Of a DNA stretch of 64,000 nucleotides, positions 606 to 48,235 are shown one piece after another. A program made the translations under genes and the position numbers. The notes under the pieces were generated by a model. It saw only the letters and a list, made by a program, of their open reading frames with translations. It was not told where the DNA came from and ran no database searches. Within the stretch, counting starts at the first letter, position 1. Each line of letters opens with the position of its first letter. Source of the stretch: a virus; the IMG/VR virus record IMGVR_UViG_3300045988_183078; one strand, given 5' to 3'.

Positions 606-650
606 TTGACGCAAAAAGAGCGGGCCTCCCGCGTGGGAAGTCCGCTCTTC
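606..650 (-). terminator. leader intrinsic-terminator-like hairpin (AGAGCGG..CCGCTCT stem plus T-run) between promoter P1 and the gene
   Basis: Minus-strand reading: GAAGAGCGGACTTCCCACGCGGGAGGCCCGCTCTTTTTGCG. Confidence 0.55.
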
Positions 651-714
651 AAGCGAAATTGTGAATACGAAGGGCAAGTCGCCTTTTCGATTATGTTATC
701 TATCGTACACTTTT

Positions 715-742
715 ATCTTATGCAATTCGCATATTTTGACAA
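715..742 (-). promoter_or_regulatory. sigma70-type promoter P1 (TTGTCA-16-TAAGAT) with conserved spacer core TGCGAATTGCA
   Basis: Hexamers and 16-nt spacing read on the minus strand. The spacer motif is shared with 11 other promoters in the window. Confidence 0.6.
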
Positions 743-914
743 CCAAGTGCTTTTGTTGGATGAATGATTGGATACGAGTGGCATCGTCATATTCGAGATG
801 AAGGGTCGCGTTTACCATATTAGTAATAGCTTGGATTGGTTATTGGATAGAATTGGATAGATTTTGTATTGCTATGAGTTAATATCTAATCAAGAACGGA
901 ACAGTTGATACCCT

Positions 915-2072
915 TTACGGCTTGCAATACCCGCAAGGTGTATAGCCCTGCTCGATTAGGTCATCGCGGGAACCTGTATAGTCTTTGCGGTTTGCATCGC
1001 TCATTTGAGCTACGGCGGAGCAGTCAGGCTTATGAAATTTCATAGAGTTTGTGTTCAGGACATAGGTACTGACCGTCGTATCCTTTTGCTGTGACTCCTC
1101 GACCTCGACTGTATCGGTGGTAGTGCTTTCTGCCGCCTGGTGATATTCGCCGTAAGTGAAAATTACGTCCTTACCGTCCGATGTGCAGTAGATGTCTCCC
1201 ATCTCGTCAGTTCTGAAAACCTCAATGTCTTTGCTCTGGAGCTTTGCCAAAGTGATGTCGTGTGGATGACCATAGCTGTTGTCCTTGCCACAGGAAATAA
1301 CAGCATAGGCTGGATTCACTGTGTCGAGGAACGCTTCGGATGTGGAGGTTCGAGAACCATGATGACCTACCTTCAGAACAGTGGACTGGATGTCCTGACC
1401 AGACTGCAGGATAACATCTTCGGCAGGCTCTTCTGCGTCACCCGTAAACAGGAATGAGGTTTCTCCATAAACGATGCGTAGGACAATGGAGGTATTGTTG
1501 GTATCGTCCGGCACTGAGTTCACAGCGATGACAGTCACTTCGGCATCGCCAAGGGAGAATGTATCCCCTACCGACGGAATCGTAAGGCCGTTGCCTCTTT
1601 CTTCCGCTCGCTGCTTGAAGTTCCGAAAAGCTTTACTGTCGTACTCTGTGACAGGGCAATACGTGACATCAGCCGTCACGGCTTCGAATGCACCGGAAAG
1701 ACCTCCGATATGGTCTTCATGGGCGTGCGTGCCAACAACATAATCCAGATGTCCGTCTGTCTCACGTTCCAGAACAGAATATACGAGGTCAGAATCATCA
1801 ACATTGCCGCCATCAATAAGCATAGAATGCCCATCACAGGTAACGAGAGCAGAGTCCGCCTGCCCCACATCAATGAAGTGGATAGTAAAGCTGCCGTCTT
1901 CCGTTACGCCAGCCGTCTGCTCACTGTTAGAAACAGGACTTTCTGAGACGACCCCGGATACAGGAAGACTACCCGAATCAATCGGGGTCTGACCGCAGCC
2001 TGTGAAGCTGAGAGTGAAGAGGGCCGCAATCGTTGCCGCTGCTCTCCGTAAGAATGTGTTTTTGCTTTGCAT
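915..2072 (-). CDS. MBL-fold metallo-hydrolase lipoprotein (ComEC/Rec2-like beta-lactamase domain) with a C-terminal Ada-like zinc-binding motif
   Basis: Signal peptide with lipobox LSFTGC. HAHEDHIGG (HxHxDH) metallo-beta-lactamase motif. C-terminus FHKPDC...GYTPCGYCKP resembles the Ada N-terminal Zn-binding pattern. GGAG RBS. Confidence 0.8.
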   Translation of the reverse strand: MQSKNTFLRRAAATIAALFTLSFTGCGQTPIDSGSLPVSGVVSESPVSNSEQTAGVTEDGSFTIHFIDVGQADSALVTCDGHSMLIDGGNVDDSDLVYSVLERETDGHLDYVVGTHAHEDHIGGLSGAFEAVTADVTYCPVTEYDSKAFRNFKQRAEERGNGLTIPSVGDTFSLGDAEVTVIAVNSVPDDTNNTSIVLRIVYGETSFLFTGDAEEPAEDVILQSGQDIQSTVLKVGHHGSRTSTSEAFLDTVNPAYAVISCGKDNSYGHPHDITLAKLQSKDIEVFRTDEMGDIYCTSDGKDVIFTYGEYHQAAESTTTDTVEVEESQQKDTTVSTYVLNTNSMKFHKPDCSAVAQMSDANRKDYTGSRDDLIEQGYTPCGYCKP

Positions 2073-2089
2073 TGGAAATTTCTCCTTTC

Positions 2090-2138
2090 AAATAAAAAAG
2101 AGCGGGCCTACCCCGGAATGGGATAGGTCCGCTCTTGA
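2090..2138 (-). terminator. leader terminator-like hairpin between promoter P2 and the MBL gene (same AGAGCGG/CCGCTCT stem as at 606-650)
   Basis: Minus strand: CAAGAGCGGACCTATCCCATTCCGGGGTAGGCCCGCTCTTTTTTATTTG. Confidence 0.55.
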
Positions 2139-2203
2139 AACAGATTGTGAACGATAGAAAATCTTAACATCTTTATGCGTTTGGTATCTATCGTACAATC
2201 AAT

Positions 2204-2231
2204 ATTGTAGTCAATTCGAAAGAAATGGCAA
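2204..2231 (-). promoter_or_regulatory. promoter P2 (TTGCCA-16-TACAAT), spacer core TCGAATTGAC
   Basis: Read on the minus strand. Followed by conserved block GTACGATAGATA, as at P1. Confidence 0.55.
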
Positions 2232-2233
2232 GG

Positions 2234-2458
2234 CTATCGCCTTTGGTCATGGGACACTTTAATGTCTGCATAAATGCAGCACCCGATAAACCCAGCACTG
2301 CAAATACAGCCCGTCGCGATATGGCGAGGATAAAGAATGAGCCATGTGGGGTCAGTCATCGCCTTTGCCCAAAAAAGAACGTCCGCCAAAGCAATGGTGA
2401 GCGGAATGATAATGGTCTTTGTGACCTTCCAGATTTTCAGTAGTTTTTCCTTTGACAT
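2234..2458 (-). CDS. small hydrophobic/membrane protein (74 aa), hypothetical
   Basis: ORF co-oriented with neighbours, hydrophobic stretch. No domain recognised. Confidence 0.35.
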   Translation of the reverse strand: MSKEKLLKIWKVTKTIIIPLTIALADVLFWAKAMTDPTWLILYPRHIATGCICSAGFIGCCIYADIKVSHDQRR

Positions 2459-2470
2459 CTTTTGGTACTC

Positions 2471-3244
2471 CTAAGCAGACAGCGTGGCTCTGACGACATA
2501 GCGTTGGTTTGTGGTTTGGTAGTATCCGAACGGATAGCAGGTATACATCACGAGCCGGTCAGTGGTGTCCAAAAGGTCCACAAGAATGGTTCCATCATCG
2601 GCCACCACAGTGCTTGCATCTTCCGTTACGGTTCCGGGCCTAGCGGAATCTATCGTATATACGTATTGTCCGTAGTCTGTAGTGACCACAAATTCGTCTC
2701 CAATACTCACGTATTGAAGCAAAGCCAAAGTGCTGTCGTTATGAGAGCAAAGAAGATGGCAACCACCGTACCCGACCTGATAGGAGCCTGTGTACTGATA
2801 TACACCGCTGCGGCTGTCGAGGAGAGCTTGGTCATCGCCCCAGATAAGGGAAGCGTTGATACCTGCGCTGCTGCATGAGATGGTCCCATAGGACGAACCG
2901 TATGTTGCAGGCACCACATCAGCCCATACGCTGGTCGTGAGTGGAACCGGAGTATCTGTAGGGACCGGCGTTAGCGCTTCGGTTGGTTCAGGAGTCTGTG
3001 TAGGAGTAGGTTCTGGTGCAGCTGTTGGTTTCGACAAAGGAGCATGAGGTGTGGGTTCCGGGATGCTGTCGGTGCTTAGATAAATCGCATCATTCGCTGT
3101 CTCAGCCGTTGCCGCTGATTCCGTTGTGCTGGCAAAAGAGTCTGGTGGTACTGATACGGGAGTAGATGCACTACTCGCGCAAGCTGTGGCAAAGGTCAGT
3201 ACGCCTACTGCCACAGCAGTTATCACTGCTTTTGTCCGTCTCAT
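2471..3244 (-). CDS. sortase-family transpeptidase (N-terminal signal/anchor, Pro/Thr-rich linker, catalytic domain)
   Basis: IGDEFVVTTDYGQYVYTI...LVMYTCYPF matches the sortase beta-barrel/TLxTC catalytic-Cys region. N-terminal TM segment and PT-rich linker present. Confidence 0.75.
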   Translation of the reverse strand: MRRTKAVITAVAVGVLTFATACASSASTPVSVPPDSFASTTESAATAETANDAIYLSTDSIPEPTPHAPLSKPTAAPEPTPTQTPEPTEALTPVPTDTPVPLTTSVWADVVPATYGSSYGTISCSSAGINASLIWGDDQALLDSRSGVYQYTGSYQVGYGGCHLLCSHNDSTLALLQYVSIGDEFVVTTDYGQYVYTIDSARPGTVTEDASTVVADDGTILVDLLDTTDRLVMYTCYPFGYYQTTNQRYVVRATLSA

Positions 3245-3286
3245 ATAACAAGTCCTTTCTGGTCGTTAGTAAAAATCAAAGCTGCC

Positions 3287-3952
3287 TCAATGCTTAACGA
3301 ATCGAGGCAGCTTTTTGGCAACGGACATGATAAGCCATTTTTGCGTTTCTTCTGAGAGTTGGTGCGGTTTGCACTCTACCTTCTTGCGGATACCATAGGT
3401 GCTTTCACCGTCATAGTAAATCAGGACACCGATGCCATCGGGAATTTCGCCTTTCACTTTTTTATAGAGAGCCGTCGGCATAGCATAGTAGTTGCAATGC
3501 CCTACAAAGTTATGCCCGTGGTCAGAGTGAAAGTCCCCTAATGAGACTTTTATTTCTACACAGGTGATGACGGTATCAATCGTGTAGAGATGCTGTGTCT
3601 TATACAACCTACAGAACCGCTCGGTGCAAGGTTCGTTGCGAAAATTCCAGTTGGAGATGTCCTTCGGGCAATTCACTTCCTGCGTCCATTGTTCGATAGA
3701 CGGCATAACGAGGTCTTTATCCTCGTCGGAGTACATCGACAATTTGCAAGTCCCACACTTTGTCTCAGAAGTGAAACACTCCTGCACACGGACGAAGTCA
3801 ACCAGACCAGAGCGTGTCGTGCCGCACTCCACCGGCACTTCAAGAGCATCGAAGCCCTGGCGGAATGTATCCGTTCTATACCCGCCGTAGTTGGTTGGAT
3901 TCCAGTTATGGAGCGCCACCTCAATTTCGCGGGTCAATTGTGTTTTAGCCAC
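3287..3952 (-). CDS. Cys-rich hypothetical protein, possible PD-(D/E)xK-like fold
   Basis: 221-aa ORF with several CxxC-like pairs. VDFVRVQE ... VEIKVS pattern is compatible with a D...E-x-K nuclease core. Speculative. Confidence 0.55.
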   Translation of the reverse strand: MAKTQLTREIEVALHNWNPTNYGGYRTDTFRQGFDALEVPVECGTTRSGLVDFVRVQECFTSETKCGTCKLSMYSDEDKDLVMPSIEQWTQEVNCPKDISNWNFRNEPCTERFCRLYKTQHLYTIDTVITCVEIKVSLGDFHSDHGHNFVGHCNYYAMPTALYKKVKGEIPDGIGVLIYYDGESTYGIRKKVECKPHQLSEETQKWLIMSVAKKLPRFVKH

Positions 3953-3958
3953 TTGTGT

Positions 3959-4078: not shown

Positions 4079-4096
4079 GGGGGTTCTCCTTTCAGG

Positions 4097-5548: not shown

Positions 5549-5561
5549 GTTTCTTTCTCCT

Positions 5562-5846: not shown

Positions 5847-5861
5847 TCTGTACCTCCCTGC

Positions 5862-6146
5862 CCTATTTAACAATGCAGTCCTTTACCGCAGCCTCTGACT
5901 CTGCATACTGCTGAGCATGGCTCTTGGCTGCCTGCAGCAAAGCGTCACGTTCTGCCTCAAGGCCACTTGCATGGATGTGTGCCGTGTTCTTTTAGCACAT
6001 GAGACAGTATGCTGCCGAACCGCCTGGCGGATGACTGCGTTTGTATGCTGAATGTTGGCAGTTTCCGAACTCGAAAAGTCTCTATCCGTGTCTTTTTTAA
6101 GATTGTATTCGGTTACAGCCTTTGCGAACTCAATAGATGTCGTCAT
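5862..6146 (-). pseudogene. frameshifted hypothetical gene. N-terminal part MTTSIEFAKAVTEYNLKKDTDRDFSSSETANIQHTNAVIRQAV..., C-terminal part in another frame ...KNTAHIHASGLEAERDALLQAAKSHAQQYAESEAAVKDCIVK
   Basis: GGAGG RBS. Start overlaps the stop of the upstream HTH gene by 17 nt. Plausible protein sequence continues in a second frame after about position 5995, implying a 1-nt indel. Confidence 0.45.
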
Positions 6147-6750
6147 AGCTGCCTCCGATTCCGGCCCAAAGAGCTTCATCGCTCAAGTCATTGCGCGGGC
6201 ATTTGATAATGCCAGCTTCTCTTAAAATTTTTCTTGCTTCATTTGGCGTTAATCCATATTGCTTAGCAAGATTCGATAGAGACTGATTTGGAATAGCTCT
6301 GGCTTGGGCAATCAATCGTCTTTTCCTCTCGGCCCAATCGATTTCGGATTTCTTTGTTTTGGGTGCAGAGCGAACGGTTCTCTCGAAGTTGATTTCGAGG
6401 TCTTTTTGGTACTTCTTCGCGATTGCCTGAATGCCGCTGCTGGTCATGCCCCACTTTTCGGCAATTTTGATGTAAGGCACACCGTTTATGTAATCTTCGT
6501 AGATTTTCTTGTTCCTGGCACGCTTTGCCTGTGTGTTTTTCTGCCAGTTTAAGCGCGTCTTTTCCAAACCGTATTCAGAGTCTGAACGAAGGATTTGTAC
6601 AATCCTATAGCCAGTCACCCCGTATTTATCAGCCAAATCCACGACACACACGCCATCCATATAATCTCGGTAAATCGCGTCATTACGTTCTTTCAAGGAT
6701 TCATGGACGTCGTTATGTCTTGGCTTCATCTTAGTATCGCTATTTCCCAT
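6130..6750 (-). CDS. DNA-binding regulator with three tandem HTH repeats (Mor/sigma-70 region-4-like)
   Basis: Three repeats of the pattern [LI]AxKYG[VLM]T...I..I (VVDLADKYGVTGYRIVQIL, YIKIAEKWGMTSSGIQAIAKKY, SNLAKQYGLTPNEARKILREAG). GGAGG RBS. ATG overlaps the helicase stop. Confidence 0.65.
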   Translation of the reverse strand: MGNSDTKMKPRHNDVHESLKERNDAIYRDYMDGVCVVDLADKYGVTGYRIVQILRSDSEYGLEKTRLNWQKNTQAKRARNKKIYEDYINGVPYIKIAEKWGMTSSGIQAIAKKYQKDLEINFERTVRSAPKTKKSEIDWAERKRRLIAQARAIPNQSLSNLAKQYGLTPNEARKILREAGIIKCPRNDLSDEALWAGIGGSYDDIY

Positions 6751-9578
6751 CACAGACCTCCAAACGAAAGCTGCTCGCCCGTGGTCTGAGGCTTTGCTTC
6801 ACTCTTTTCTTTCTTCTTGGAACCAAAACTGCCACCGTTGCGCCGCTTATAGCCATAGCCCTTGTGCGCAGCCTGAACGGATTTGTACCCATACCCGTTT
6901 GCATCGTCCAGCACAGTGTTGGAATCCTCTTCCATGATGACATAGCGTACATCACCAGGTTTAGACAGCTTAGAGGAGCGAATAACTCGATAGTCGGCCG
7001 GGAACATTTCTTTCTCTTTCTTATACTGCTCTTCCCCATCCTTCCACCAGCCGACGGGCTCAGAATCATACGTCTTACGCTCCGGCGGCAAACGCTTGTA
7101 CTGGGAGAAGTCGTAAGGTTCCGTTGCGGTCTCTTCCGCGACTTTGACATCCACGCCCATGCTCTGCAAGCTGTTCAGCATCTGCTCAAAGCTGTCAGCT
7201 GGATTCAAAACTACCTGTTTCGGGGCTTGAGCCGGGCTGTACTGGGTGACAGGCTTCGGGCGCTTCTTCTCGCGGACTTTCCAGACCTTGAGAAGCTGAC
7301 GTTCGTTGAAGTCGATGACCAAGCCGCAGTCTTTGAGCATCTTGCGAACTACATAGGTAGAGAAGGTTGAATAGCCTGAATACGGGCCGACATGGTTCTC
7401 AATATCGACTGCCACGCAAGACATCTGATGCTCAAACTCTGCATGGACATCAAGCCACTGTTCGATGACATGGAGGAGTTCTTTCTTGTTGACCGATTCT
7501 TCCGTGGCTTTCTTATTCTGTTTCACGTATGCTTCGCAGGCTGCCAGAATCGTGTCATATCCGTTTACTGCCGTGCCATCCACGATAGAGCGGGTTCCGG
7601 CATCCAGGATGACATACTGCTCACCCTGCTTGATAATAGCAACGCCTTCGTCCTGCGGCGTTTCCTCTACAATGTTGCCGCCGGTATCAAATTCAGGCAG
7701 CGAAGTGTCGGACATAACTCGGTCAAGAATCGTATCGAGGCTTTGGGAGTAGTCTTTCTCCAGATTGTAGGAGAGAGCTTCCGTATAGACGCCCTTTGTG
7801 ATACACTTCACCACTGCGTTCAAAAACGCCGTGCGGTCCGGAATTTCGACTTCATACATCGTGTTATCCCGAATGTTCCAAAGTACACCGGTAGGCAGGC
7901 CTGTAGCGAGCATATAGCAAGCGCACTGGATGAAATGCTTGTGCGCGAGGTTCGACACAAATTTAAGGCAATATACTTTATTATCTTTGACTACATCGGC
8001 CATGCCACTGACGATAAGAGAAGTGACAGGCTGTTTCAATTCATCCTGCTCCACCACAAGTTTCAACTCGGCGCGTTCCTGAACCTCTTCGTCATGCGTG
8101 AACATAGTAGAAAGACGGTCGGTCAGTGCTTTAGCCTGCTCCGGCGTGATGAAAGGCAGTTCTACCTGCTTGATATAACGGTCCTGGCTCGTCATCAGCA
8201 TTGTAAGAAACAGAACTTTTTGCTCAACGGACTTCCAAGTGGTTGGAACCTTCGCCATCTTGTCCTTGTGTAGGTACATGAAGAAGGCGATGGCGCTGTC
8301 GATGTCGTAAAAATCGAAGAAGTTTGCCTGCTGGTAGATGCCAATGCAGGGAGACAGGTCAATCATCGCATCGGAGTGCTTGATTTCAATTTCCGTCTGG
8401 TCTTTCTGGAATGCCTGCTTGGCCGTGATAAGGCTGTAGCACAAGGCTAAATCCTCATCGAACTTGAAATCGAACATTTCACTGATGTCGAATTTGTCCT
8501 TAAAGGTGGTGCGAGTCTTGACAGGGGTCATCAGTGTCTTGTCACTCACGAGGCTACGCTTATCGGGTTTGACGAAGATGACCTCCTGCTTGCCACGGCT
8601 CGCAGCTACGCAAAAGAGGTTGCGCATGATTTCGTAGCGAGTCAGCGGCTGACGCATACGGGTTGCCCAGTAATCCTCGGTGAAATCGAAGACCACGCAG
8701 ATAGGACGTTCCATGCCCTTGCTGCCGTCGAACGTTGTGAAGATGCCCACATTGCTGTTCGGAGCTATGCTTTTTTCGCCGTCGTTGTCCTTGATGCTGG
8801 CATAAACATGTTTTTTGTCGTAAAGGTTATCGGGGCGCTCTTCCAAGGCATTCAAAACTGCGGCCATCTGGCCGGTACGAGCGCCAAGGCATAGGACGTT
8901 CTTCGGGTCCAAATCGTTGAGGTACTCGATGACCTCATCCTTCGTCATGGACTTGACTTTGCAGTTCTCGTTGACTCCGTTGATTTCCTTATTCCAGATA
9001 GTGCCAAGGCGCTCGGCCAAGTCGTGGGACAAGCGGAAGCATTGGGTAAAGTTGACCTGCGTGTGTTTGCCGAGGAACTTGTTGATGAAGTTCCAGATGT
9101 CCAATGACGTGGTATCGTAGATTTTTTGCTTCATGTCCCCTACTGCGATGATTTGCATGTCGGGGTTCTCTTCCTTGATATATTCAAGCATTCGAGAAAT
9201 TTCTTCGTTAATATCTTGGTACTCATCGATGATGAGCACGTCATAGCGACCGACCGGAACATGCAAATCGAGCGCCTTCTTAATTTGCTCGCCCTGTCCA
9301 ATATTACGAACTCCGTGCCGATAGAGGAGTTTTGAAGCAAAGCCGTGGTAGTTCTGAACGACAACATTGTCGTTTAGGATTTTTTCTTGCGCGTCGAGTT
9401 TTAGCAGACGGTTATAGGTCAGGTACAGAATCTGTTTGGAGGCGTCAAACTCGTTACACAACACGTTGATGGTCGATGTTTTACCGCTGCCGATGCAAGC
9501 GTCACAGAGTATATTTCTGCCTGCGAGAGCCAGGCGTACAAGGTCCTGTTGCTCAGTAGACAGGTTAGCGAGAGTCAT
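6750..9578 (-). CDS. superfamily-1 (UvrD/Rep-like) DNA helicase domain protein, 942 aa, with an uncharacterised about 500-aa C-terminal region
   Basis: Walker A DACIGSGKTS near the N-terminus, motif II VLIIDEYQDI. GGAGG RBS (GGAGGATTCAAACC ATG). Confidence 0.8.
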   Translation of the reverse strand: MTLANLSTEQQDLVRLALAGRNILCDACIGSGKTSTINVLCNEFDASKQILYLTYNRLLKLDAQEKILNDNVVVQNYHGFASKLLYRHGVRNIGQGEQIKKALDLHVPVGRYDVLIIDEYQDINEEISRMLEYIKEENPDMQIIAVGDMKQKIYDTTSLDIWNFINKFLGKHTQVNFTQCFRLSHDLAERLGTIWNKEINGVNENCKVKSMTKDEVIEYLNDLDPKNVLCLGARTGQMAAVLNALEERPDNLYDKKHVYASIKDNDGEKSIAPNSNVGIFTTFDGSKGMERPICVVFDFTEDYWATRMRQPLTRYEIMRNLFCVAASRGKQEVIFVKPDKRSLVSDKTLMTPVKTRTTFKDKFDISEMFDFKFDEDLALCYSLITAKQAFQKDQTEIEIKHSDAMIDLSPCIGIYQQANFFDFYDIDSAIAFFMYLHKDKMAKVPTTWKSVEQKVLFLTMLMTSQDRYIKQVELPFITPEQAKALTDRLSTMFTHDEEVQERAELKLVVEQDELKQPVTSLIVSGMADVVKDNKVYCLKFVSNLAHKHFIQCACYMLATGLPTGVLWNIRDNTMYEVEIPDRTAFLNAVVKCITKGVYTEALSYNLEKDYSQSLDTILDRVMSDTSLPEFDTGGNIVEETPQDEGVAIIKQGEQYVILDAGTRSIVDGTAVNGYDTILAACEAYVKQNKKATEESVNKKELLHVIEQWLDVHAEFEHQMSCVAVDIENHVGPYSGYSTFSTYVVRKMLKDCGLVIDFNERQLLKVWKVREKKRPKPVTQYSPAQAPKQVVLNPADSFEQMLNSLQSMGVDVKVAEETATEPYDFSQYKRLPPERKTYDSEPVGWWKDGEEQYKKEKEMFPADYRVIRSSKLSKPGDVRYVIMEEDSNTVLDDANGYGYKSVQAAHKGYGYKRRNGGSFGSKKKEKSEAKPQTTGEQLSFGGL

Positions 9579-9605: not shown

Positions 9606-9653
9606 ACGCAAAAAGAATACCCCGGCAGGCACGCATGGTGTTCCGCCGGGGTA
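9606..9653 (-). terminator. leader hairpin (ACCCCGGC...GCCGGGGT) plus T-run between promoter P3 and the helicase gene
   Basis: Minus strand: ACCCCGGCGGAACACCATGCGTGCCTGCCGGGGTATTCTTTTTGCG. Confidence 0.55.
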
Positions 9654-9676
9654 CAATTATTTATCTTACAATATCA

Positions 9677-9704
9677 ATTGTAGGCAATTCGCACAGATGG
9701 TCAA
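9677..9704 (-). promoter_or_regulatory. promoter P3 (TTGACC-16-TACAAT), spacer atctGTGCGAATTGCc
   Basis: Minus-strand reading. The -10 is embedded in the dyad TACAATTGATATTGTA. Confidence 0.65.
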
Positions 9705-9751
9705 GCGCTTTTTATCGTATTTTGTTTTGAGTTTTGCGGGCACAAAAACAA

Positions 9752-9880
9752 CGTCCACCCGTGATTTACGGATGGACGTTCAATCTTACGCAGCCACATG
9801 TGCTGCTAAGATGCTTTCGGACGACATGTAGCCGATACCGTCCTCGTTTCAATCTTACGCAGTCACACGGGCTGCTACGG
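9752..9880. repeat. non-coding repeats: imperfect inverted repeat (9752-9778) and two roughly 30-bp direct repeats CAATCTTACGCAG(C/T)CAC... (9781-9810, 9850-9880)
   Basis: Seen directly in a 400-nt ORF-free stretch between the nucleotidyltransferase gene and P3. Confidence 0.5.
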
Positions 9881-14147: not shown

Positions 14148-14186
14148 TAGAAAAGAAAAAGCCCGCCTGTTAGCAGCAGGCAGGCC
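14148..14186 (-). terminator. intrinsic terminator (GCCTG-loop-CAGGC plus GGGCTTTTTCTTTT)
   Basis: Minus strand: GCCTGCTGCTAACAGGCGGGCTTTTTCTTTT. Confidence 0.55.
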
Positions 14187-14321
14187 GTTCTCGCAGTGAG
14201 CGTTTTAGGTCCGCTCAAGACCCTATTCGTCTCTACCGAAGCAACGCTGTCAACGCTGTTCAGTATCTATTAGTATATGGTGGTCGCATATCGTGTCAAC
14301 TGGATATCGCGGCAATGCAAC

Positions 14322-15343: not shown

Positions 15344-15922
15344 TTATTCGCTTGACGTTAGCTCTTTTTCAAACTCGACTTTGAGTTGCTTTGCCCTTTC
15401 ATCAGCACATAGTTTGTCATATAATAGTTTATCGTCTCTATCGTAAGAGTTAAAGACGTATGTGTTTTTTATGCAAGCCATGTTGCTTGTCGCACACCAT
15501 GATTTTGCATGCCCAATTAAGCATTCGCACAGCTGTTTTACATCTATAATTCTAAACTGCTCAAAAGATAATCCGCTACAGTGGTTGCCCAAAGAAAAGA
15601 ACAATCTTTTCTTGCCGTCTGCTATATTGGCGCATCCAGCGTGTACTATATCGCATCGCAGATTGTATAAGACATCAGCAAATTCCGTGCCAAGGCACTC
15701 TTTTATCCATATATCATTATTCATTTGAGATTTGCACCAATCCACATAGCATTTTTTATCATTGAAATAGTTCCCATTTTTATAAGCTTCATTATTAGCG
15801 TATTCCAATCTCGAACACATACTTGGAAGCATTAGTGCTACAGACAAAGCACTCCAATAATTTTCGTCTTTCAGAGACTTTTCGCCAGAAGTAATAAAAT
15901 CATAAATGTTAAAATAACTCAT
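15344..15922 (-). CDS. Cys-rich hypothetical protein (192 aa) in AT-rich island
   Basis: Local GC about 33% versus about 50% in flanks. No recognisable domain. Confidence 0.55.
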   Translation of the reverse strand: MSYFNIYDFITSGEKSLKDENYWSALSVALMLPSMCSRLEYANNEAYKNGNYFNDKKCYVDWCKSQMNNDIWIKECLGTEFADVLYNLRCDIVHAGCANIADGKKRLFFSLGNHCSGLSFEQFRIIDVKQLCECLIGHAKSWCATSNMACIKNTYVFNSYDRDDKLLYDKLCADERAKQLKVEFEKELTSSE

Positions 15923-16038
15923 TTGTTAACGCTCCTTTCCTTAAAACAAAAAGCCTCCCACCGCAGTCAGTGTGATACTGATTACGATAGGAGGCTGTAA
16001 ACATGTTGTGATGTTTGTATTATAACGCTTATACTACA

Positions 16039-16704
16039 TTATGTAAATATATTATTTTTGGAATCTGGTTTTGATAGTTTCCCATTTAGTCCTTTTTTGA
16101 GAAGCCTAAGCGAAATTTCAAGTGGGCTGATAATATCCTCGTAGATATATACACAGCGACGATGCGTAAAATCATTATTTTCACTGCAGACCATCATTAC
16201 AAAGTCTGGACTTTTGTTTTTGTTATATGCTTCGTCTTCACTAAAGCCGCAGCAAGTCCCTGTCATAGTGGTATCCATTTTGCAAAATGGGTGAATGTCT
16301 ACATACCATTCTGTTCCATTTCTTCCAAAATCACATTCGCTTCCGCGTCTTGTGTCGAATGGGTGTGCTGTTGTAATGCTCCTTAGCGTTCTGAAACGCG
16401 TGATTTTTAGCTTTTCATCCTCGCTAAAATATTCTGAGCAATTCTCCCCGATTGCAACATTAAATAAATATCTGATAGCGCATAAACACATACTTGTTTT
16501 CAGAATTAGAAGTAACACGTCATCCTGATTATATTTCTCTTTTCTTAACAGAACTTGTATATCTCCAAGATAATAAACCAACATTTGCTTGGCGGCATAT
16601 ATCTTGTTTTTTTCTTTTCCACTCTTGTTTGAAAGACTGATTATTTTATTAGCTGCCGTTTGAGTTAAATTCAGCTGTCTTAATGTTTTCTCATTTACGC
16701 TCAT
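16039..16704 (-). CDS. hypothetical protein (221 aa) in AT-rich island
   Basis: Low GC. No recognisable domain. Confidence 0.55.
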   Translation of the reverse strand: MSVNEKTLRQLNLTQTAANKIISLSNKSGKEKNKIYAAKQMLVYYLGDIQVLLRKEKYNQDDVLLLILKTSMCLCAIRYLFNVAIGENCSEYFSEDEKLKITRFRTLRSITTAHPFDTRRGSECDFGRNGTEWYVDIHPFCKMDTTMTGTCCGFSEDEAYNKNKSPDFVMMVCSENNDFTHRRCVYIYEDIISPLEISLRLLKKGLNGKLSKPDSKNNIFT

Positions 16705-19491: not shown

Positions 19492-19935
19492 TTATCTTAA
19501 TTTGGTCCTGATTTCTTCGAGCATCATGCCCAGTTTGTTCTGACCGTGAACGCCCTTGCATCTGGGACACTGGCAGTCGCCCCAATAGTTATCGTGCCAG
19601 CCTGTCGTGTCCTCAATAATGTGCCGGTCGCCTGTAGCGAGCAGTCGCTGTTTGAACTCTTCGTTCTGGTTGAACTTGGCATACAGCACCCGGCGCATCG
19701 CTTCGTCTCGAACTTTGTCCCAATCTGGAGAAAGTTGGACCCGGCGGCCGAGTCGCTTAGCCTCGTTCGGCATGAGGCAGGCAAACTGGCGTCTCTCCTC
19801 CAGCGGGACCTTCTGGGCCTGGAACGCTGCCTCCGCGTTGAGGTAGTAGATTCCATCCAGCACAAAGGAGCAAGGATAATAATTGCTCAGAAACCCGTAG
19901 GTCGGGTCGTCTTTCTTAAACCGCAGCAGATTCAA
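19492..19935 (-). CDS. NADAR (YbiA-like, DUF1768) domain protein; predicted ADP-ribosyl/N-glycosidic hydrolase
   Basis: GFLSNYYP, AEAAFQAQKV, MRRVLYAKFNQ and HDNYWGDCQCPRC match the YbiA/NADAR motifs (FSNF, EHYFQAQKF, MRKALRAKFEQ, D..WG.G). Confidence 0.8.
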   Translation of the reverse strand: MNLLRFKKDDPTYGFLSNYYPCSFVLDGIYYLNAEAAFQAQKVPLEERRQFACLMPNEAKRLGRRVQLSPDWDKVRDEAMRRVLYAKFNQNEEFKQRLLATGDRHIIEDTTGWHDNYWGDCQCPRCKGVHGQNKLGMMLEEIRTKLR

Positions 19936-20578
19936 TGTGCATTCCCTCCATGACCCCGGCGGGCGTATCTTTGAGAACCTTGTATCGCATCGTCGTAACG
20001 CCCAGCAGACCGTTGAAGATGGTCACAGCGGTATGCGTGAACAGAGGGTTCTGCAAGGTCATCTTGCCGTTTGTATCCCACTGGCCTTTGAGTTCAGCGG
20101 CCGCATCGTACACAACCATCATCATGGCTTCATACATGTCGGACATCAGCTGTCGGTCGTACTTCTTCAAAGCATAGTAGCTTGGCAGGTTGTAAACGCG
20201 GCCGAGGAGCGGCTCGTCATACAAGGGCGAACCTTTCGCAACCATCGTATTGTAGACTTTGGGCCAGGCAGCTTCTTTCGGCTTGCCGGTGGTTGCCTGC
20301 ATCTCGATGTTCTTGAAACCAGCCGTCATGTTGTACAGCACCATGAGCCGCTCGGCAAGCAAGACGGAAGATTCAGCCAGGTGCTTTGCTTCCTCATTGG
20401 TCATCGCAACCTGCATGGCCGTGCTGTCCGAGTCGTTGCCATAATAGAAATACTGCTTGCGCCCGGCGGCAGCTTTCTGTACGAGCTTCTTTGCCAGCTG
20501 GCTTTCGATGTAATTGTAGATGTCGTTTTCCAACTCACAGGTGATGTGCGTTGCGGTATAATGGATATTTTTGTTCAT
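19916..20578 (-). CDS. paralog-family A protein (A2, 220 aa); 3' end overlaps the NADAR gene start by 20 nt
   Basis: Homology to A1 (see 12954-13553). N-terminus NIHYTATHITCELENDIY. Confidence 0.6.
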   Translation of the reverse strand: MNKNIHYTATHITCELENDIYNYIESQLAKKLVQKAAAGRKQYFYYGNDSDSTAMQVAMTNEEAKHLAESSVLLAERLMVLYNMTAGFKNIEMQATTGKPKEAAWPKVYNTMVAKGSPLYDEPLLGRVYNLPSYYALKKYDRQLMSDMYEAMMMVVYDAAAELKGQWDTNGKMTLQNPLFTHTAVTIFNGLLGVTTMRYKVLKDTPAGVMEGMHIESAAV

Positions 20579-20599
20579 TGGTTTACCTCTTTGTGTATA

Positions 20600-20630
20600 A
20601 TAAAAAGAAAGAGCGGTCGAGCCGCTCTCC
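20600..20630 (-). terminator. leader hairpin GAGAGCGG...CCGCTCT plus T-run between P6 and A2
   Basis: Minus strand: GAGGAGAGCGGCTCGACCGCTCTTTCTTTTTATT. Confidence 0.5.
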
Positions 20631-20659
20631 TCAAAACACTTATTTAGCTTACAATTTTC

Positions 20660-20687
20660 ATTCTATGCAATTCGCACAGACACGCAA
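20660..20687 (-). promoter_or_regulatory. promoter P6 (TTGCGT-16-TAGAAT), spacer gtctGTGCGAATTGCA
   Basis: Minus-strand reading. Confidence 0.6.
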
Positions 20688-33008: not shown

Positions 33009-33036
33009 ATTCTACGCAATTCGCACAAATGCACAA
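33009..33036 (-). promoter_or_regulatory. promoter P9 (TTGTGC-16-TAGAAT), spacer atttGTGCGAATTGCG
   Basis: Minus-strand reading. Confidence 0.6.
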
Positions 33037-33049: not shown

Positions 33050-33097
33050 TAAGCAAAAAGAATCCCCGCTGCTCTTTGCGGGGAAAAGCAGCGGGGT
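33050..33097 (-). terminator. intrinsic terminator (10-bp stem CCCCGCTGCT/AGCAGCGGGG plus ATTCTTTTTGC)
   Basis: Seen on the minus strand. Confidence 0.6.
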
Positions 33098-33274
33098 CCG
33101 TAAGAAAGGATAAAGAAAGGATGTAAGGAACGAGGTGACTGCATGAAAGCAGATAGAACCGTCGGAGAGGGACGGCAAATGTTGTGAGAACTCAGGCACT
33201 GTACCCTGCCCCGGTTTGCATGGCTGCCATCGACAGCACCGTCGGGTCTTTGTCCTTGCCCTCTATATTGTATT

Positions 33275-33290
33275 ATACCACATGTGGTAT
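33275..33290. promoter_or_regulatory. perfect 16-bp palindrome ATACCACATGTGGTAT (operator-like) in a non-coding stretch
   Basis: Seen directly. Adjacent to a plus-strand TATAAT-containing segment. Confidence 0.4.
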
Positions 33291-33451
33291 ACAAAATCAA
33301 GATGCAATCCGAAAATATGGCACATTTAGTGCTTTGTCTGTATAATGAGTTGAACTTTTTTGCCTCTGTTTGTGGAGCTCAATCCAAAAAGATAGCCGTT
33401 TTCCAACATTTTGGGAAATGAGATACACTTTTAACTTTAACTCATTCCTGA

Positions 33452-44299: not shown

Positions 44300-45142
44300 T
44301 TAGAGATAGTTAGATAGCTTAATGACGGATACTCCGTATGGAGATGTATCAATGTCGAGGTATGTGCAGCCGGAGTTGGGTCTATCCATCCGAGTGATTT
44401 CTTTATGAGGAATGTGTCCAAAAATATAGAGCGTATCCCGATGACCGGTCAGCATTTCGTCTTTATCATAATCAAAGACTCGACCGAACGGATTGTTGTG
44501 TGTCACTACGACTTGTTTGAATCGAGAGCCAGGCGGAGGTGTGATGTTGAGTTCCTGTGCCTGATTCTCGAAGATAACTTCAAAGTTCTCTCTCGTCTTT
44601 TTCGTACCAGACAGGTACTCGTAGATGGTATGCTCTGCTTCATACGGTGTGCCACACATATTGTCAAGCAAGTATACGACCATCTGCCAAAGCCCATCAT
44701 TCTCCCACGCGAGAGTGTAGGTGATGAAGAGCTTTTGCCACCCAGCGAATGTATGAGGTCTTGCGGCGAGAATATTCTTTCTCTCCTCCATGCCGCATCT
44801 GAGCGCTTCGAGTTCTTCTTTTGTTCTGAAGATGTTCTCTCCCTGTCTGTAGTGGAGAAATACCCAGGCTGCGAGCTTTCTGACGGTCGGAGACTGTGCG
44901 AGTGCTTTATAGTATCGAAGCATCTGCCTATGTTCGTATTCGTGGTTACCAAGAACGAGATGGACTGTATCTGGATGTTCCGTAATGAAGTTGACGACCT
45001 TTGCGTTTTCCTTTCCACGGTCTACTACATCACCGACGAAGACGAGCTTATCATTTGCCTCGTCCCATCCGGCCGCTGCGAGAGACGCTATGAGACCTTT
45101 GTAGTTCCCATGCACATCTCCTACAACATAGATATCGCTCAT
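44300..45142 (-). CDS. calcineurin-like metallophosphoesterase (PPP-family Ser/Thr phosphatase-like)
   Basis: GDVHGN, GDVVDRG and GNHE motifs. Confidence 0.8.
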   Translation of the reverse strand: MSDIYVVGDVHGNYKGLIASLAAAGWDEANDKLVFVGDVVDRGKENAKVVNFITEHPDTVHLVLGNHEYEHRQMLRYYKALAQSPTVRKLAAWVFLHYRQGENIFRTKEELEALRCGMEERKNILAARPHTFAGWQKLFITYTLAWENDGLWQMVVYLLDNMCGTPYEAEHTIYEYLSGTKKTRENFEVIFENQAQELNITPPPGSRFKQVVVTHNNPFGRVFDYDKDEMLTGHRDTLYIFGHIPHKEITRMDRPNSGCTYLDIDTSPYGVSVIKLSNYL

Positions 45143-45927
45143 TGGTTATCACCTTCTTTCCCAAAGTCGTCCGTGTTTACTTTAGCAATCTGATTATACA
45201 GAATTCTGAGCTTGTACATTGGTTTGTCAATGTCTTGGTGCATGTGGCCGCAATACCATTGTTTGAACTTCACCCGGCGGTAAATTTCATCAAGGTATAC
45301 GCCCGTTGGGTCGTGAATCGGACTGATGTCTCTGAAATAGATTGGCATGAGCATCTGTGGAAGCATGTGCGTAAGGATAACATCCACTTCGTTTCCGTGA
45401 GATTCCAGCGTATCAAGACCGTGCCACATCTCTTTCTGAGATGGGACTTCTTCCCTCCACCAAGTGACGCCTTCTGTACGGTATGCTTTGTCGATAGACT
45501 CTGCACCTCCCATACACCATACAGTCATACCATCTATCGTGTAGTATTCGCCACGCATCAGGTGGATGACATTCGGTGCTTCCGGCAGGCGTTGAATCAT
45601 GCCACCGTTCCACCGTTCGGTAGGCTGCTCTGCCCAGAAGGTGTGGTTATCGTGGTTACCATCGATGAAGAGGATATTGCAAGGAAAAGACTTCATCCAG
45701 TCGGTGTACATCTGGTACGCTCGCGCTGACTTGATACAGTGTTGCGGCATGTCCAGTGTCTTGAGGTCGTCCGCCGGGATGCGGTCTGTCGGAAAGAACG
45801 GAAATCCGAAGTCTCCGCAAACAACAATCGCATCATCTTTTGTGATGTCACGGTTAAGGAACCGTTTCGGATTGATTTTGGAAATCTCATCCGGTCCATG
45901 TGTATCGCCAAAAATATGAAGAAGCAT
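45139..45927 (-). CDS. calcineurin-like metallophosphoesterase
   Basis: GDTHG, GDFG and GNHD motifs. ATGA overlap with the downstream paralogous-fold gene. Confidence 0.75.
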   Translation of the reverse strand: MLLHIFGDTHGPDEISKINPKRFLNRDITKDDAIVVCGDFGFPFFPTDRIPADDLKTLDMPQHCIKSARAYQMYTDWMKSFPCNILFIDGNHDNHTFWAEQPTERWNGGMIQRLPEAPNVIHLMRGEYYTIDGMTVWCMGGAESIDKAYRTEGVTWWREEVPSQKEMWHGLDTLESHGNEVDVILTHMLPQMLMPIYFRDISPIHDPTGVYLDEIYRRVKFKQWYCGHMHQDIDKPMYKLRILYNQIAKVNTDDFGKEGDNQ

Positions 45928-45986
45928 CCGTCGTCATCTCCTTTCTGTTCTGCGTTGATTTTGTTCTGGATGGATTATAGGGTGCC

Positions 45987-46745
45987 TCACAGCATCGCGA
46001 GCAGTTTCTCTGCTTCATGGTTTTCCTTGTAGGCCGCAATCGCCATATTCCGCCGGTCTCTCTCCTGCTCTTCTTCGGGATACCAGTCTTCGGTATAGTC
46101 GTCGCCCAGCAGCTTCTTTACGACATCCTCAAACGGAATGCCCTTGCTGGGTTCGCCGCTTTCAGCAAGGTCTTTCTTTTCTTCCTCAAGGTTCGCATCG
46201 ATTTCAGCTTTGGCGTTCTCCATACCTTCAGGTTCGATGCCAAAAAAGGTCATCTCCCACAACACGCGGGAAAGGCACCACTCAAGGCCGTAGATATAGA
46301 TACTGGACGGTGCCAGTTTCCAGCTGAGAATCTCTTCCCAACTGCAAAACTCAAAGGCGTATTGTGTCGGCAAGTCCTGCTTCATTACGGCGGCCATGAT
46401 GTCGTCGGTGCTCATAAAGGTAAGCATCTCGTCGCTGATGGTTTCCGCTTCAGGAACTTTTGTGTGCTTCTCTTTCCACTCGCGAAGGTCACTAGCTTCA
46501 ATGCAGACGGTGTCATCTCCTACATTGCCAAAGCCCTTGCAGACGAAGAGCAGTTTCTGCTCCGGCTCTACTTTCAGGGTGAGTGTCTTCATGCGCATGA
46601 ATGCAGCATTGACCTCTTCTTTGGCATCTGCAAGCCTGTCGCGTTCTTCGCCGCCACTGTGATACATAGCTGCAAACTCCGCAGCCAGCTTGTCTACGTC
46701 ACAGTGCATGAATGCCTGATAGGTGTTCTCAAAGTTCGTGGTCAT
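45987..46745 (-). CDS. acidic hypothetical protein (252 aa)
   Basis: ORF. Confidence 0.5.
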   Translation of the reverse strand: MTTNFENTYQAFMHCDVDKLAAEFAAMYHSGGEERDRLADAKEEVNAAFMRMKTLTLKVEPEQKLLFVCKGFGNVGDDTVCIEASDLREWKEKHTKVPEAETISDEMLTFMSTDDIMAAVMKQDLPTQYAFEFCSWEEILSWKLAPSSIYIYGLEWCLSRVLWEMTFFGIEPEGMENAKAEIDANLEEEKKDLAESGEPSKGIPFEDVVKKLLGDDYTEDWYPEEEQERDRRNMAIAAYKENHEAEKLLAML

Positions 46746-46850
46746 AATTGCCTTTCCGGCTGTTCACTTCAGCCCAATTCTTGTGTATTCCAAAGTGCTG
46801 CTTCATAGTTCTTGATGACCTTATATCAGGCAACAGCTTCATCATATCTC

Positions 46851-47084
46851 TTATTTCTTCGTTTTCTTCCCGGCTTCTTTCAAAATAGTCACCTTCGTCT
46901 TCGGATGCAGCTTATCCTTTACAGCTTCATATTCTTCTGTCGTCCCCTCAAAGGTGATTTTACTACCTCCTGCTACCATCGCTTTTTGCATATCAAGAGA
47001 GTCAATGCACTGTGCGGATTCCGTATGAACTCCAATGATAGTTCCTGTTCCGCGTCCTCTCGGACTTATCACTTCATATACCAT
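46851..47084 (-). CDS. small hypothetical protein (77 aa)
   Basis: AGGAGG RBS. Confidence 0.5.
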   Translation of the reverse strand: MVYEVISPRGRGTGTIIGVHTESAQCIDSLDMQKAMVAGGSKITFEGTTEEYEAVKDKLHPKTKVTILKEAGKKTKK

Positions 47085-47262
47085 GTTTGGCTACGCCTCC
47101 TAAAAAGAAAAAGAACGACGGCTACGCAACCAGCGACCAGTTTCATGGTGGCAGCTACGCTTCCGTCGTTCATAAGCTCCTTTGCTATTGGCAGCGATGC
47201 TTTCATCCTCTGCCTACGGTTCGTTCCACGCGCACCTACGGTTTCACCCGCCGGGCTACGCT

Positions 47263-47451
47263 TTAATCATCGTCGTCTTTGAGTGCGTTATAGGCAAAGA
47301 ACCCATAAAGGCCAAAGAAGTACAGCGTAATAACCCAAGTGGGAAGGTATTCAGTCACGCCGGTCAGCGTGAAGACAACAGCCATAATACAAGCCGTTAC
47401 CAGGAACTGCGAATCGACGTACAGCACCAATCCGATGTTAAAGCCTTTCAT
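47263..47451 (-). CDS. small membrane protein (62 aa) ending DDDD
   Basis: Strong RBS GAGGAGG. Two TM helices. Confidence 0.55.
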   Translation of the reverse strand: MKGFNIGLVLYVDSQFLVTACIMAVVFTLTGVTEYLPTWVITLYFFGLYGFFAYNALKDDDD

Positions 47452-47453
47452 CT

Positions 47454-48119
47454 TTATGCCTCCTCAAAGTAGTCTCTCAGCGAGTCAGAGACTTTAACTC
47501 GTACAGTGTCATCCCACGAGTCGTATTTGTTCTCCGGGTACGAAACATCTTCGACAGAACTCAGCTTCCAGGTAGAAACAGGCTCACCGTCTTCGATGCG
47601 AACAATGGTAGGAGCGCCGATACGCTTCTCTCCAATCTCGTACTTGTTCTTGTCCTTATCACTTACCGTGTAATCTGCCAGGTAGTCTTGCAGCCAATTG
47701 AGAAGTTCATCATACCCTTCCCCTGCTGCTTTTGTCATCACAGGAGCACCAGCATTCTCGTCGTATGCGTAGATGTCGCGGTACTCATCGATTTGGCAGT
47801 AGTAAACGGTCTGGTTCTTTTCTTTGGCAATACCGGTAAGTTCAGGAATCAGGTTGCGGCAGTAAGGGCAGCGAGGATACGCAAAGATAACGATGCCATC
47901 TTTGATTTCTCTCGCCTGTGTCGCAGTCACTTCAACATAAGTGTTATTCCAGGGAATGCCTACGGTTTGATAGGTATAGTCAGCAGCTACGCTCGGCTTC
48001 TGGTTGTTGTATCCAGAGTAGCTTCTTGCAACTACGGCTCCATCACTACTGGCTACGCTAATTGCAGCAGCCATTGCCAGCGATGCAACTACGTAAGGAA
48101 CAATGAATTTCTTAGTCAT
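47454..48119 (-). CDS. secreted thioredoxin-fold thiol-disulfide oxidoreductase (CPYC)
   Basis: Signal peptide. FAYPRCPYCRNLIPEL thioredoxin CxxC motif. Common in Gram-positive conjugation gene clusters. Confidence 0.75.
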   Translation of the reverse strand: MTKKFIVPYVVASLAMAAAISVASSDGAVVARSYSGYNNQKPSVAADYTYQTVGIPWNNTYVEVTATQAREIKDGIVIFAYPRCPYCRNLIPELTGIAKEKNQTVYYCQIDEYRDIYAYDENAGAPVMTKAAGEGYDELLNWLQDYLADYTVSDKDKNKYEIGEKRIGAPTIVRIEDGEPVSTWKLSSVEDVSYPENKYDSWDDTVRVKVSDSLRDYFEEA

Positions 48120-48235
48120 TTCTCAAAACCTCAAGTGCCTACGGTCAGGAGCTACGCTTTGAGGTTTGTAGTTCTTCGGCTACGCTTCGGCAGCTACGCT
48201 CCTTCCGTGTTTCGTCTTCTTTATTTTCATCGCCA

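Follow-up and report, generated by a model that had tools for sequence, protein, structure and literature searches.

Why should a transcription terminator stand between a promoter and the gene that the promoter serves? The question is raised by a 64,000-nt stretch of DNA from the IMG/VR virus record IMGVR_UViG_3300045988_183078 (the whole stretch is called the window below), nearly all genes of which lie on the minus strand. The original prediction had listed six sites with the order promoter, hairpin, ribosome-binding site (RBS), and had proposed leader terminators that are read through under some condition. We find that four minus-strand sites, starting at 742, 2231, 9704 and 20687, are copies of one cassette, in which a sigma-A-type promoter is followed by a box (TGTACGATAGATA), a leader, a GC-rich hairpin with a U-run, an RBS and a start codon. 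That this cassette is real, and that the terminator belongs to it, we regard as nearly certain. We give about an even chance to a further claim, namely that the hairpins serve as intrinsic terminators in self-contained regulatory cassettes of ~150 bp, which are placed before many genes and short operons and are conditionally read through.

The cassette recurs far beyond the window. Searches with the combined promoter and box pattern matched 79 metagenome stretches (mostly human gut) and 21 IMG/VR stretches, and a looser pattern matched at least 120 IMG/VR stretches; the 2.15 Mb of related gut-metagenome and IMG/VR DNA retrieved by these searches holds 313 distinct cassettes, 309 of which have a hairpin and U-run within 135 nt of the box. 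Of the first 105 distinct copies, 103 have a 16-nt spacer between -35 and -10, 92 have 6 nt between the -10 and the box, and 104 have the terminator, with the end of its U-run 49-127 nt from the start of the box and a mode near 100. A Shine-Dalgarno sequence (SD) and start codon follow 20-53 nt past the U-run in 103 of 104 cases, an interval too short to fit another promoter. In each of the 128 loci with at least two cassettes, every copy is on a single strand; arrays and genes point the same way, and the cassettes have a median spacing of 1.8 kb, with up to six of them in 11-13 kb. The genes behind them are diverse and include those for a metallo-beta-lactamase (MBL)-fold protein, a UvrD-like helicase, an NrdD-like protein, an HD-like protein and many unknowns. 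A covariance model of the leader, built from a seed of 17 leaders, finds 204 copies in 0.8 Mb of IMG/VR loci.

Each hairpin is GC-rich and stands directly before a U-tract on the transcribed strand, the arrangement of an intrinsic (Rho-independent) terminator, and the predicted strength is considerable (mean ~-18 kcal/mol, with 5-7 consecutive U in ~92%). In the model alignment of 116 distinct sequences, 97% of the cells in the terminator helix are paired and 10 of 13 pairs show compensatory double changes, a level reached in none of 500 shuffles and in no slid register; an unfitted alignment likewise supported the stem. The AGAGCGG...CCGCTCT stem pointed out in the original prediction is indeed present at three sites (617-648, 2099-2135 and 20610-20628), where the minus-strand RNA folds more stably than its shuffled counterparts (z = -3.4, -4.0 and -2.0) and is followed by a U-run, an SD and a start codon, the last 21-27 nt on. 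Though common to these three hairpins, that stem turns out to be one version among others of a lower-stem core, GC(G/A)GAC...G(G/U)C(C/U)GC, that is shared by the family.

The terminator goes with the box. Among 149 non-redundant promoters of the type found in the cassette (the TGCGAA type, described below), it is present in 88 of the 91 that have the box and in 16 of the 58 that lack it (Fisher p = 3e-20), and we therefore take box, leader and terminator to be one optional unit inserted between promoter and RBS. Moreover, for at least 42% of cassettes (36 of 85 distinct upstream contexts) the upstream gene has a terminator of its own, the U-run of which abuts the -35 of the cassette (for example 9780-9750), so that the hairpin within the cassette is not merely the terminator of the gene before it.

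The promoter has the form TTGNNN-N5-TGCGAA-N5-TAnAAT, with a 16-nt spacer, TGCGAA at -23 to -18 and the box 5-6 nt after the -10. The window holds nine such promoters, every one of them on the minus strand, against an expectation of 0.12. The original prediction had placed the promoters slightly off: a better sigma-A promoter lies ~15-20 nt upstream of the hexamers implied by 'GTGTACGATAGATAAC in the leader'. Because this promoter lies further upstream, the block that had been noticed in the first two leaders (TGTACGATAGATA, at 709-697 and 2197-2185) would begin at about +1. The promoters without a box point to the same position. They have an SD and start codon within ~10-35 nt, so that they are the sole possible promoters there and would start transcription ~7 nt after the -10; by analogy, the box would begin at ~+1 of the transcript and its hexamer would span ~+3 to +8.

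Over its 13 nt the box is nearly invariant. Positions 3-8 read mostly TACGAT, and the variants (TAAGAT, TATAAT, TATGAT, AACGAT and TACAAT) keep A2 and T6 of the hexamer and vary at its positions 3-4, a pattern (TAnnAT) that looks like the signature of a -10-like element read by sigma. At lambda pR' the -10-like element is AACGAT. That of PalpB is CACGAT (PMC9371919). The TGCGAA motif is likewise nearly invariant at -23 to -18, and equally so in the 58 promoters without a box, most of which have no terminator; it appears to be a general promoter feature of the element.

In addition to the box, many leaders carry a small RNA domain. CGTAC(A), the reverse complement of (T)GTACG in the box, occurs in 151 of 220 distinct leaders, 32-44 nt downstream, and the stem that these strands would form, P1 (GUACG/CGUAC), closes a variable hairpin, H1, that directly abuts the anchor; a conserved single-stranded AUUCACAAU follows. 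H1 is represented by 58 distinct arm pairs, and in a hand-registered alignment 6 of 6 informative pairs covary, with 78 double-change cells where shuffles give 23.6 and none of 500 reaches the observed count. Since many of its pairs are G.U, H1 is specific to the sense-strand RNA, and since it had been located by a hairpin search it was also compared with shuffled segments, which gave a combined p of ~3e-14 over 22 arm types. Covariation in the leaders, which had been named as a check on the original prediction, is seen both in the terminator stem (10 of 13 pairs) and in H1 (6 of 6). P1 is conserved and nearly invariant on both sides, with just two compensated variants (GTATA/TATAC and GTAGC/GCTAC). 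In relatives the leader of the cassette at 742 is 93% identical, compared with 82% for the downstream coding sequence.

We considered other structures for the leader. A third hairpin, H0, in which the box would pair with the next segment, did no better than shuffles (p = 0.58). A leader peptide, sought as an SD with a start codon, was found in 0 of 220 leaders, and a competing antiterminator helix is not supported, the extra pairing averaging -4 kcal/mol against -18 kcal/mol for the terminator. On these figures we rejected a riboswitch or attenuator that works by an alternative helix or a leader peptide, and they favour modification of the polymerase over an RNA switch. A single-stranded-DNA promoter of the Frpo kind was rejected as well: the DNA fold of the 329-nt intergenic region 586-914 has z = -0.15, with the promoter outside any stem. 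Across the whole window Rfam 15 gave no match at the gathering threshold, and the best match below it was L20_leader (23 bits against 58.7).

Based on this anatomy we can outline how the cassette might work. The host sigma-A polymerase would initiate ~7 nt after the -10, at the T or G that opens the box TGTACGATAGATA, and the -10-like hexamer TACGAT (~+3 to +8) would hold the sigma-containing polymerase in a promoter-proximal pause. The nascent RNA would form a small 5' domain, with P1 closing H1 and single-stranded AUUCACAAU after it. By default, the GC-rich hairpin and U-run, ~100 nt after the start site, would stop transcription, so that only a short RNA is made and the gene stays silent; expression would require that the polymerase be made resistant to the terminator at the conserved promoter-proximal element. 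Resistance could come from a factor, encoded by the element or by the host, that is loaded while the complex is paused, as Q is at lambda pR' and AlpA at PalpB, or it could be conferred through the hairpin in the leader RNA, in the manner of LoaP at the dfn leader. Polymerases from the cassette's own promoter would be the only ones still to carry sigma, and so the same terminator could stop read-through from upstream. Such a mechanism would explain why an apparently strong terminator follows a good promoter and stands flush against an RBS, why fixed recognition elements are found alongside drifting terminators, why box and terminator occur together, and how one terminator can also end the upstream operon.

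We hold the parts of this proposal with different degrees of confidence. The covariation of the terminator as part of the cassette, its coupling to the box and the separate upstream terminators make conditional read-through, as originally proposed, the best-supported reading, and we consider the chances evenly divided as to whether the cassette is a read-through-controlled leader of some kind. Loading of a factor at a sigma-dependent pause, specifically in the manner of Q or AlpA, seems rather doubtful to us. Somewhat less doubtful, and still tentative, is an element-wide processive antitermination regulon, in which several hundred accessory-gene cassettes would be turned on by a single factor, or by the leader RNA together with host proteins, acting through a promoter-proximal signal composed of a sigma-pause-like DNA box at +1 and a small three-way 5' RNA domain.

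Several points weigh against conditional read-through. In the short cassettes (9704 and 20687) the leader domain is absent and the box runs directly into the terminator. TGCGAA, being present also in promoters without a terminator, is not a read-through-specific site like a QBE. P1 is beyond the reach of covariation, since both of its strands are nearly invariant, and because its 5' strand overlaps the hexamer, the readings of this segment as a stem and as a -10-like element are confounded. Anatomy, conservation, covariation and the coupling of box and terminator are observations, and from them we infer the start site, the pause, the efficiency of termination, the read-through and the existence of a factor. 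As to that factor, the antiterminator protein that the original prediction had suggested seeking among the open reading frames (ORFs) of the window did not emerge: Q, AlpA or any other known type had no Pfam, NCBIfam or PHROG match among the ORFs of the window, which is a portion of a ~240 kb element. NusG paralogs were likewise missing, with no NGN or KOW Pfam match in the window and, when E. coli NusG was compared by phmmer with 10,048 ORF segments of the related loci (2.1 Mb), nothing at E <= 10, a query of limited sensitivity.

The system is also lineage-restricted, without independent phylogenetic replication, which is a further point on the same side. In the nearest deposited replicon, a distant relative (the 247.5-kb Subdoligranulum variabile plasmid OY725878.1, whose VirB4-like protein is 37% identical), the box, TGCGAA-type promoters and covariance-model matches were all not found, and a generic scan of the plasmid for a hairpin followed by an RBS gave matches that lie mostly inside coding regions and have no common motif. 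In a separate search, the promoter and box pattern gave six chance matches only in 185,579 GTDB species genomes; either the host genome lies outside that collection or the element is missing from it. A literature search for the box sequence found no paper in the library covered, and a deep comparison of the proteins downstream of cassettes met families too narrow for it (3 and 7 homologues).

The sole recognisable transcription-factor-like gene in the window, and at present only a candidate regulator, lies at 6130-6753 on the minus strand, in the operon of the cassette at 9704. It encodes a 207-aa protein with three tandem helix-turn-helix (HTH) repeats resembling Mor, CD3324 and sigma region 4, for which a comparison with PDB sequences gave no informative match. 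Proteins of this kind, with three to four such tandem repeats, are expanded in the related DNA, where 48 distinct ORF segments fall in 29 loci (L162, L188, L204, L237 and L242 among them), often as 2-4 adjacent paralogs.

Could the cassette do without a dedicated factor altogether? As a constitutive attenuator or insulator, its terminator would be leaky, would set a low fixed level of expression and would block transcription from upstream, and P1 and H1 would shield the 5' end of the mRNA from 5'-dependent RNases. That P1 would start at the first transcribed nucleotide speaks for this: pairing is poorly conserved at box position 1 and well conserved at position 2, as would suit a helix flush with the 5' end. 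Leaky terminators may moreover be a habit of the element, as there are promoterless intercistronic hairpins with U-runs (3313-3280, before the sortase gene), and the failure to find a factor fits as well. A mere stabiliser leaves unexplained, however, why 13 nt should be near-invariant and why the hexamer varies as a -10-like element does; it offers no account of the strict coupling between box and terminator; and terminators of ~-18 kcal/mol, ~92% of them with 5-7 U, look strong rather than leaky. We consider this explanation unlikely, though not negligible.

The put RNA of phage HK022 consists of two stem-loops, is present in two copies per phage and is not known to have an adjacent terminator. 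An RNA of the put type, acting in cis and independently of any factor, would let the cassette's own transcripts always pass. As in put, a short structured RNA lies directly downstream of the promoter and could act on the transcribing polymerase; it is conserved, it stands between the promoter and a generic terminator, and it stays fixed as the terminator sequences vary freely. In canT of Tn916, the Bacillota mobile elements also provide a precedent for a cis-acting RNA antiterminator (PMC11658703). The difficulty is that transcripts reading through from upstream would carry the same RNA, making the terminator pointless. In addition, the cassettes at 9704 and 20687 possess box and terminator and have no 5' domain, the domain of ~45 nt is far smaller than canT (452 nt), and similarity between put and the cassette was found neither in sequence nor through Rfam. 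The probability that remains for such an RNA is small.

A promoter, ~100 nt of RNA and a strong terminator are also what a small RNA gene looks like, and the conserved 5' end is seed-like. If the cassettes were such genes, with a common 5' end, expression downstream would be incidental read-through; short RNAs of this size would in any case arise from default termination. We give this little credence, as an SD and start codon lie 20-53 nt downstream on the same strand, with no other promoter, in 103 of 104 cassettes, and every array is co-directional with the genes.

Equally little can be said for an operator, in which TGTACG of the box and CGTACA of the anchor would be DNA half-sites for a repressor of the element, straddling the start site, and the terminators would be unrelated. 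The two do make up an inverted repeat, in one variant GTGC replaces both copies (so that they stay identical and are not Watson-Crick complements), and multi-HTH proteins of the Mor/CD3324 kind are expanded in these elements. The distance between the two sites, however, ranges from 32 to 44 nt, and the hairpin between them covaries with G.U pairs that make sense in sense-strand RNA only; the two compensated variants of P1 are complementary rather than identical, and the coupling of box and terminator would again be unexplained.

Finally, that the hairpins are terminators of upstream genes behind spurious promoters, the alternative raised in the original prediction, is very improbable: the intergenic regions of three of the four window cassettes do lack another terminator, but promoter geometry is fixed in more than 300 copies, the same promoter type is the only one available to genes without a box, 42% of cassettes have a separate upstream terminator, and the terminator co-occurs with the box and not with gene ends.

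Which known system, then, does conditional read-through at these cassettes most resemble? Control by Q or AlpA (pR'-tR' and PalpB-tB) is defined by a -10-like element in the first transcribed bases and a downstream intrinsic terminator (PMC9371919). The systems of lambda, 21 and 82 (Q) and of AlpA share with the cassette a sigma-70-type promoter, an early -10-like nACGAT, a conserved element between -35 and -10 and a terminator before the first gene; they also yield a short terminated RNA by default (PMC9371919), as we suppose for the cassette from its sequence. They differ in number, with one per phage against hundreds of copies per element family here, and in host, that of the cassette belonging to the Bacillota (Oscillospiraceae-like). 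The spacer element of the cassette, TGCGAA, is also found in promoters without a terminator, the cassette has an added, covarying leader RNA domain, and the window yielded no homologue of Q or AlpA.

For the RNA part of the cassette, LoaP at the dfn leader seems just as close in function. In Bacillus velezensis this leader combines a small RNA hairpin required for read-through with an intrinsic terminator, which is read through by the NusG paralog LoaP (PMC12691694). Both systems occur in Bacillota and have a small leader hairpin, then an intrinsic terminator, then an operon. In contrast to dfn, the cassette precedes short accessory operons instead of long biosynthetic ones and has a conserved box at +1, and neither the window nor the 2.1 Mb of related loci yielded a NusG paralog.

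The likeness to pCF10- and pLS20-type conjugation operons, suggested earlier, does not hold up as well. Both conAn (pLS20) and canT (Tn916, 452 nt) are single, large RNA regions (over 300-450 nt) that head conjugation operons, and conAn also involves the ConAn1 protein (PMC8191782, PMC11658703). They resemble the present case in that Gram-positive mobile elements carry terminators in or ahead of their own operons, which an element-encoded system reads through (PMC8191782, PMC11658703). The cassette, however, is ~100 nt long, is present in many copies before accessory genes, recurs every ~1.8 kb and is absent from the type IV secretion system (T4SS) region of the window. In anatomy, the Q/AlpA or LoaP/dfn arrangement appears to fit better. 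The system may work like control by Q/AlpA or LoaP; membership of either family is not demonstrated, since a search of the window for the defining protein did not find it.

What would be new is a matter of scale: promoter-proximal conditional termination, known in kind, would here operate as a regulon. If so, this would be the first regulon-scale system like Q/AlpA or LoaP and the first in Oscillospiraceae-type bacteria, on ~240 kb gut megaplasmids that IMG/VR lists as viral, and antitermination loaded at the promoter would extend from single phage late operons to a whole Bacillota regulon. A conditional terminator would make the cassette a compact, portable on/off unit of ~150 bp, used hundreds of times by abundant uncultured mobile elements of the human gut, and the genes gated by it would include those for a NADAR-domain protein, an MBL-fold protein (with a faint Apyc1 Pfam match), a UvrD-like helicase and an NrdD-like protein. 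The leader would add a structured RNA motif new to Rfam and provide a defined cis-element with which to fish out the factor. The rigid geometry and more than 300 natural alleles make the proposal directly testable and the cassette an attractive part for synthetic biology.

The four cassettes of the window, all on the minus strand, show the anatomy in detail. In the first, the promoter (715-742) has its -35 (TTGTCA) at 742-737, TGCGAA at 731-726 and its -10 (TAAGAT) at 720-715, and the box TGTACGATAGATA at 697-709 contains both the -10-like TACGAT and the 5' strand of P1. Its leader (658-685) comprises H1 (685-670), the anchor CGTAT that forms the 3' strand of P1 (669-665) and a C-box, TTCACAAT (665-658); the covariance model matches 709-611 (E = 4.7e-12). 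The intrinsic terminator (612-648) consists of a stem-loop at 648-617 and a U-run to 612, followed (583-602) by the SD AAAGGAG at 602-596 and the ATG at 585-583 of a 110-aa gene (253-585). The second has a promoter at 2204-2231, with -35 TTGCCA, the variant TTCGAA in place of TGCGAA (2220-2215) and -10 TACAAT (2209-2204), the box TGTACGATAGATA at 2185-2197, and a leader at 2144-2158 in which TCTATCGT pairs with ACGATAGA of the box and the C-box TTCACAAT recurs. This copy, which was outside the seed alignment, is matched by the model at 2197-2093 (E = 3.6e-8); its terminator (2093-2135) has a stem-loop at 2135-2099 and a U-run, and is followed by an SD at 2088-2082 and the ATG, at 2072, of the MBL-fold gene.

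The other two are of the short form. The third (9658-9704) has -35 TTGACC, TGCGAA at 9693-9688, -10 TACAAT at 9682-9677 and the box TGTAAGATAAATA at 9670-9658, then a terminator (9607-9653; stem-loop 9653-9618 and U-run; z = -3.5) whose stem is unlike those of the other three, and whose variants in relatives keep the pairing by G.U. An SD (9593-9588) and the gene for a 942-aa UvrD-like helicase, starting at 9578, follow; the gene upstream has an ordinary terminator (9750-9780) before this promoter. The fourth (20641-20687) has -35 TTGCGT, TGCGAA at 20676-20671, -10 TAGAAT at 20665-20660, the box TGTAAGCTAAATA at 20653-20641, a terminator at 20597-20630 (stem-loop 20628-20610 and U-run), an SD at 20591-20586 and a 220-aa gene that starts at 20578. 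In the first, second and fourth, the hairpin is the sole terminator of the intergenic region.

The order of promoter, hairpin and RBS, which occurs far more often than chance would allow, holds at 742, 2231, 9704 and 20687, and it holds also at 16047, a site outside the family (15952-16047, minus strand), where a promoter TTTACA-17-TATAAT (16047-16019) is followed by a hairpin with a U-run (15996-15952; z = -5.6), an RBS and a gene at 15344-15922. It fails at 33300 and at the end near 48166. At 33300 the terminator (33096-33064) lies ~200 nt downstream and is followed by another promoter, which is the ordinary order. The hairpin near 48166 (~48175-48135) has a 6-bp stem and a long loop with z = -0.32, is no member of the family, and appears structured because a cluster of heptamer repeats lies there. 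That cluster (47096-48335, minus strand) holds 14 heptamers [GC]CGTAG[GC] in 1.24 kb (GCGTAGC ten times, CCGTAGG four times), against just 10 further copies on the minus strand in the other 63 kb; it lies directly upstream of, and within, the first genes ahead of the T4SS block, and could represent iterons, a centromere or protein-binding repeats of the oriT type.

The region at 33300 is itself a candidate small RNA gene (33064-33300, minus strand), in which a strong extended -10 promoter, TTGATT-17-TATAAT (33300-33272), is followed by ~180 nt without a plausible ORF and by the 13-bp terminator at 33096-33064. Right after that terminator stands a degenerate cassette promoter at 33036 (minus strand; TTGTGC...TGCGAA...TAGAAT, box TGTACAAGCGGAA), the hairpin of which (~32985-32955) has lost its U-run. 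At 14299-14272 (minus strand) a TGCGAA-type promoter precedes a leader of ~85 nt that has no box and starts with AATAGATAC, a terminator at 14186-14161 and ~140 nt of AT-rich DNA before the next gene; the whole unit (14161-14299) is conserved in loci L074 and L171 and may be a second type of leader or a small RNA. Further along the strand, an intercistronic hairpin with a 9-bp stem and a 15-nt loop (3280-3313, minus strand) spans the stop codon of the gene at 3287-3952 and is followed by TTTGATTTTT. The start codon of the sortase gene lies 26 nt on, with no space for a promoter, and the sortase therefore would also depend on read-through of a terminator.

As to the element that carries these cassettes, the window appears to come from a large conjugative element carried by an Oscillospiraceae-like host, judging by its gene content, by related gut contigs of ~218-253 kb and by the S. 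variabile plasmid as nearest replicon. It encodes a VirB4-like ATPase (51621-54329), a VirD4-type coupling protein (57299-59470), a sortase and an M23 peptidase, and its accessory genes include those for a UvrD-like helicase, an ImpB-type polymerase, a NADAR protein, an HNH nuclease, an MBL-fold protein, an RlaP-like protein and flotillin. Proteins identical to those of the window are found on many human-gut metagenome contigs of that size, regardless of assembler (loci L011-L020, L117, L119 and L124), and one copy of the element is embedded in a 1.36-Mb contig (GCA_964261755.1). A search of phage and plasmid records at near-identity gave zero matches. IMG/VR classes the relatives (up to 389 kb) as viral, yet the window has T4SS genes and a sortase; the element may be a plasmid, an ICE or a phage-plasmid.

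The genes served by cassettes (e.g. 915-2072 and 19492-19935) include kinds typical of anti-defence or establishment regions, among them a secreted MBL-fold protein (the faint Pfam match being to Anti-Pycsar Apyc1), a NADAR-domain protein, an HNH nuclease, an RlaP-like nucleotidyltransferase and a YpsA/SLOG protein; these share one orientation, which is reminiscent of the leading region of a plasmid. Short direct repeats lie upstream of two of the cassettes: (A/G)CTGCGTAAGATTGAA occurs twice before the third, at 9863 and 9794 on the minus strand, with a similar GTTGCGTAAGATTGAAG ahead of a cassette in L044, and TCTATCCAAT occurs twice before the first, at 861 and 851 on the minus strand, and three times in L014. 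Lastly, three independent short Logan contigs (L033, L035 and L036) begin at the identical base in the leader of the first cassette (AAAGTGCCC...), as would be expected if the promoter and box upstream were a multi-copy repeat that breaks assembly graphs.

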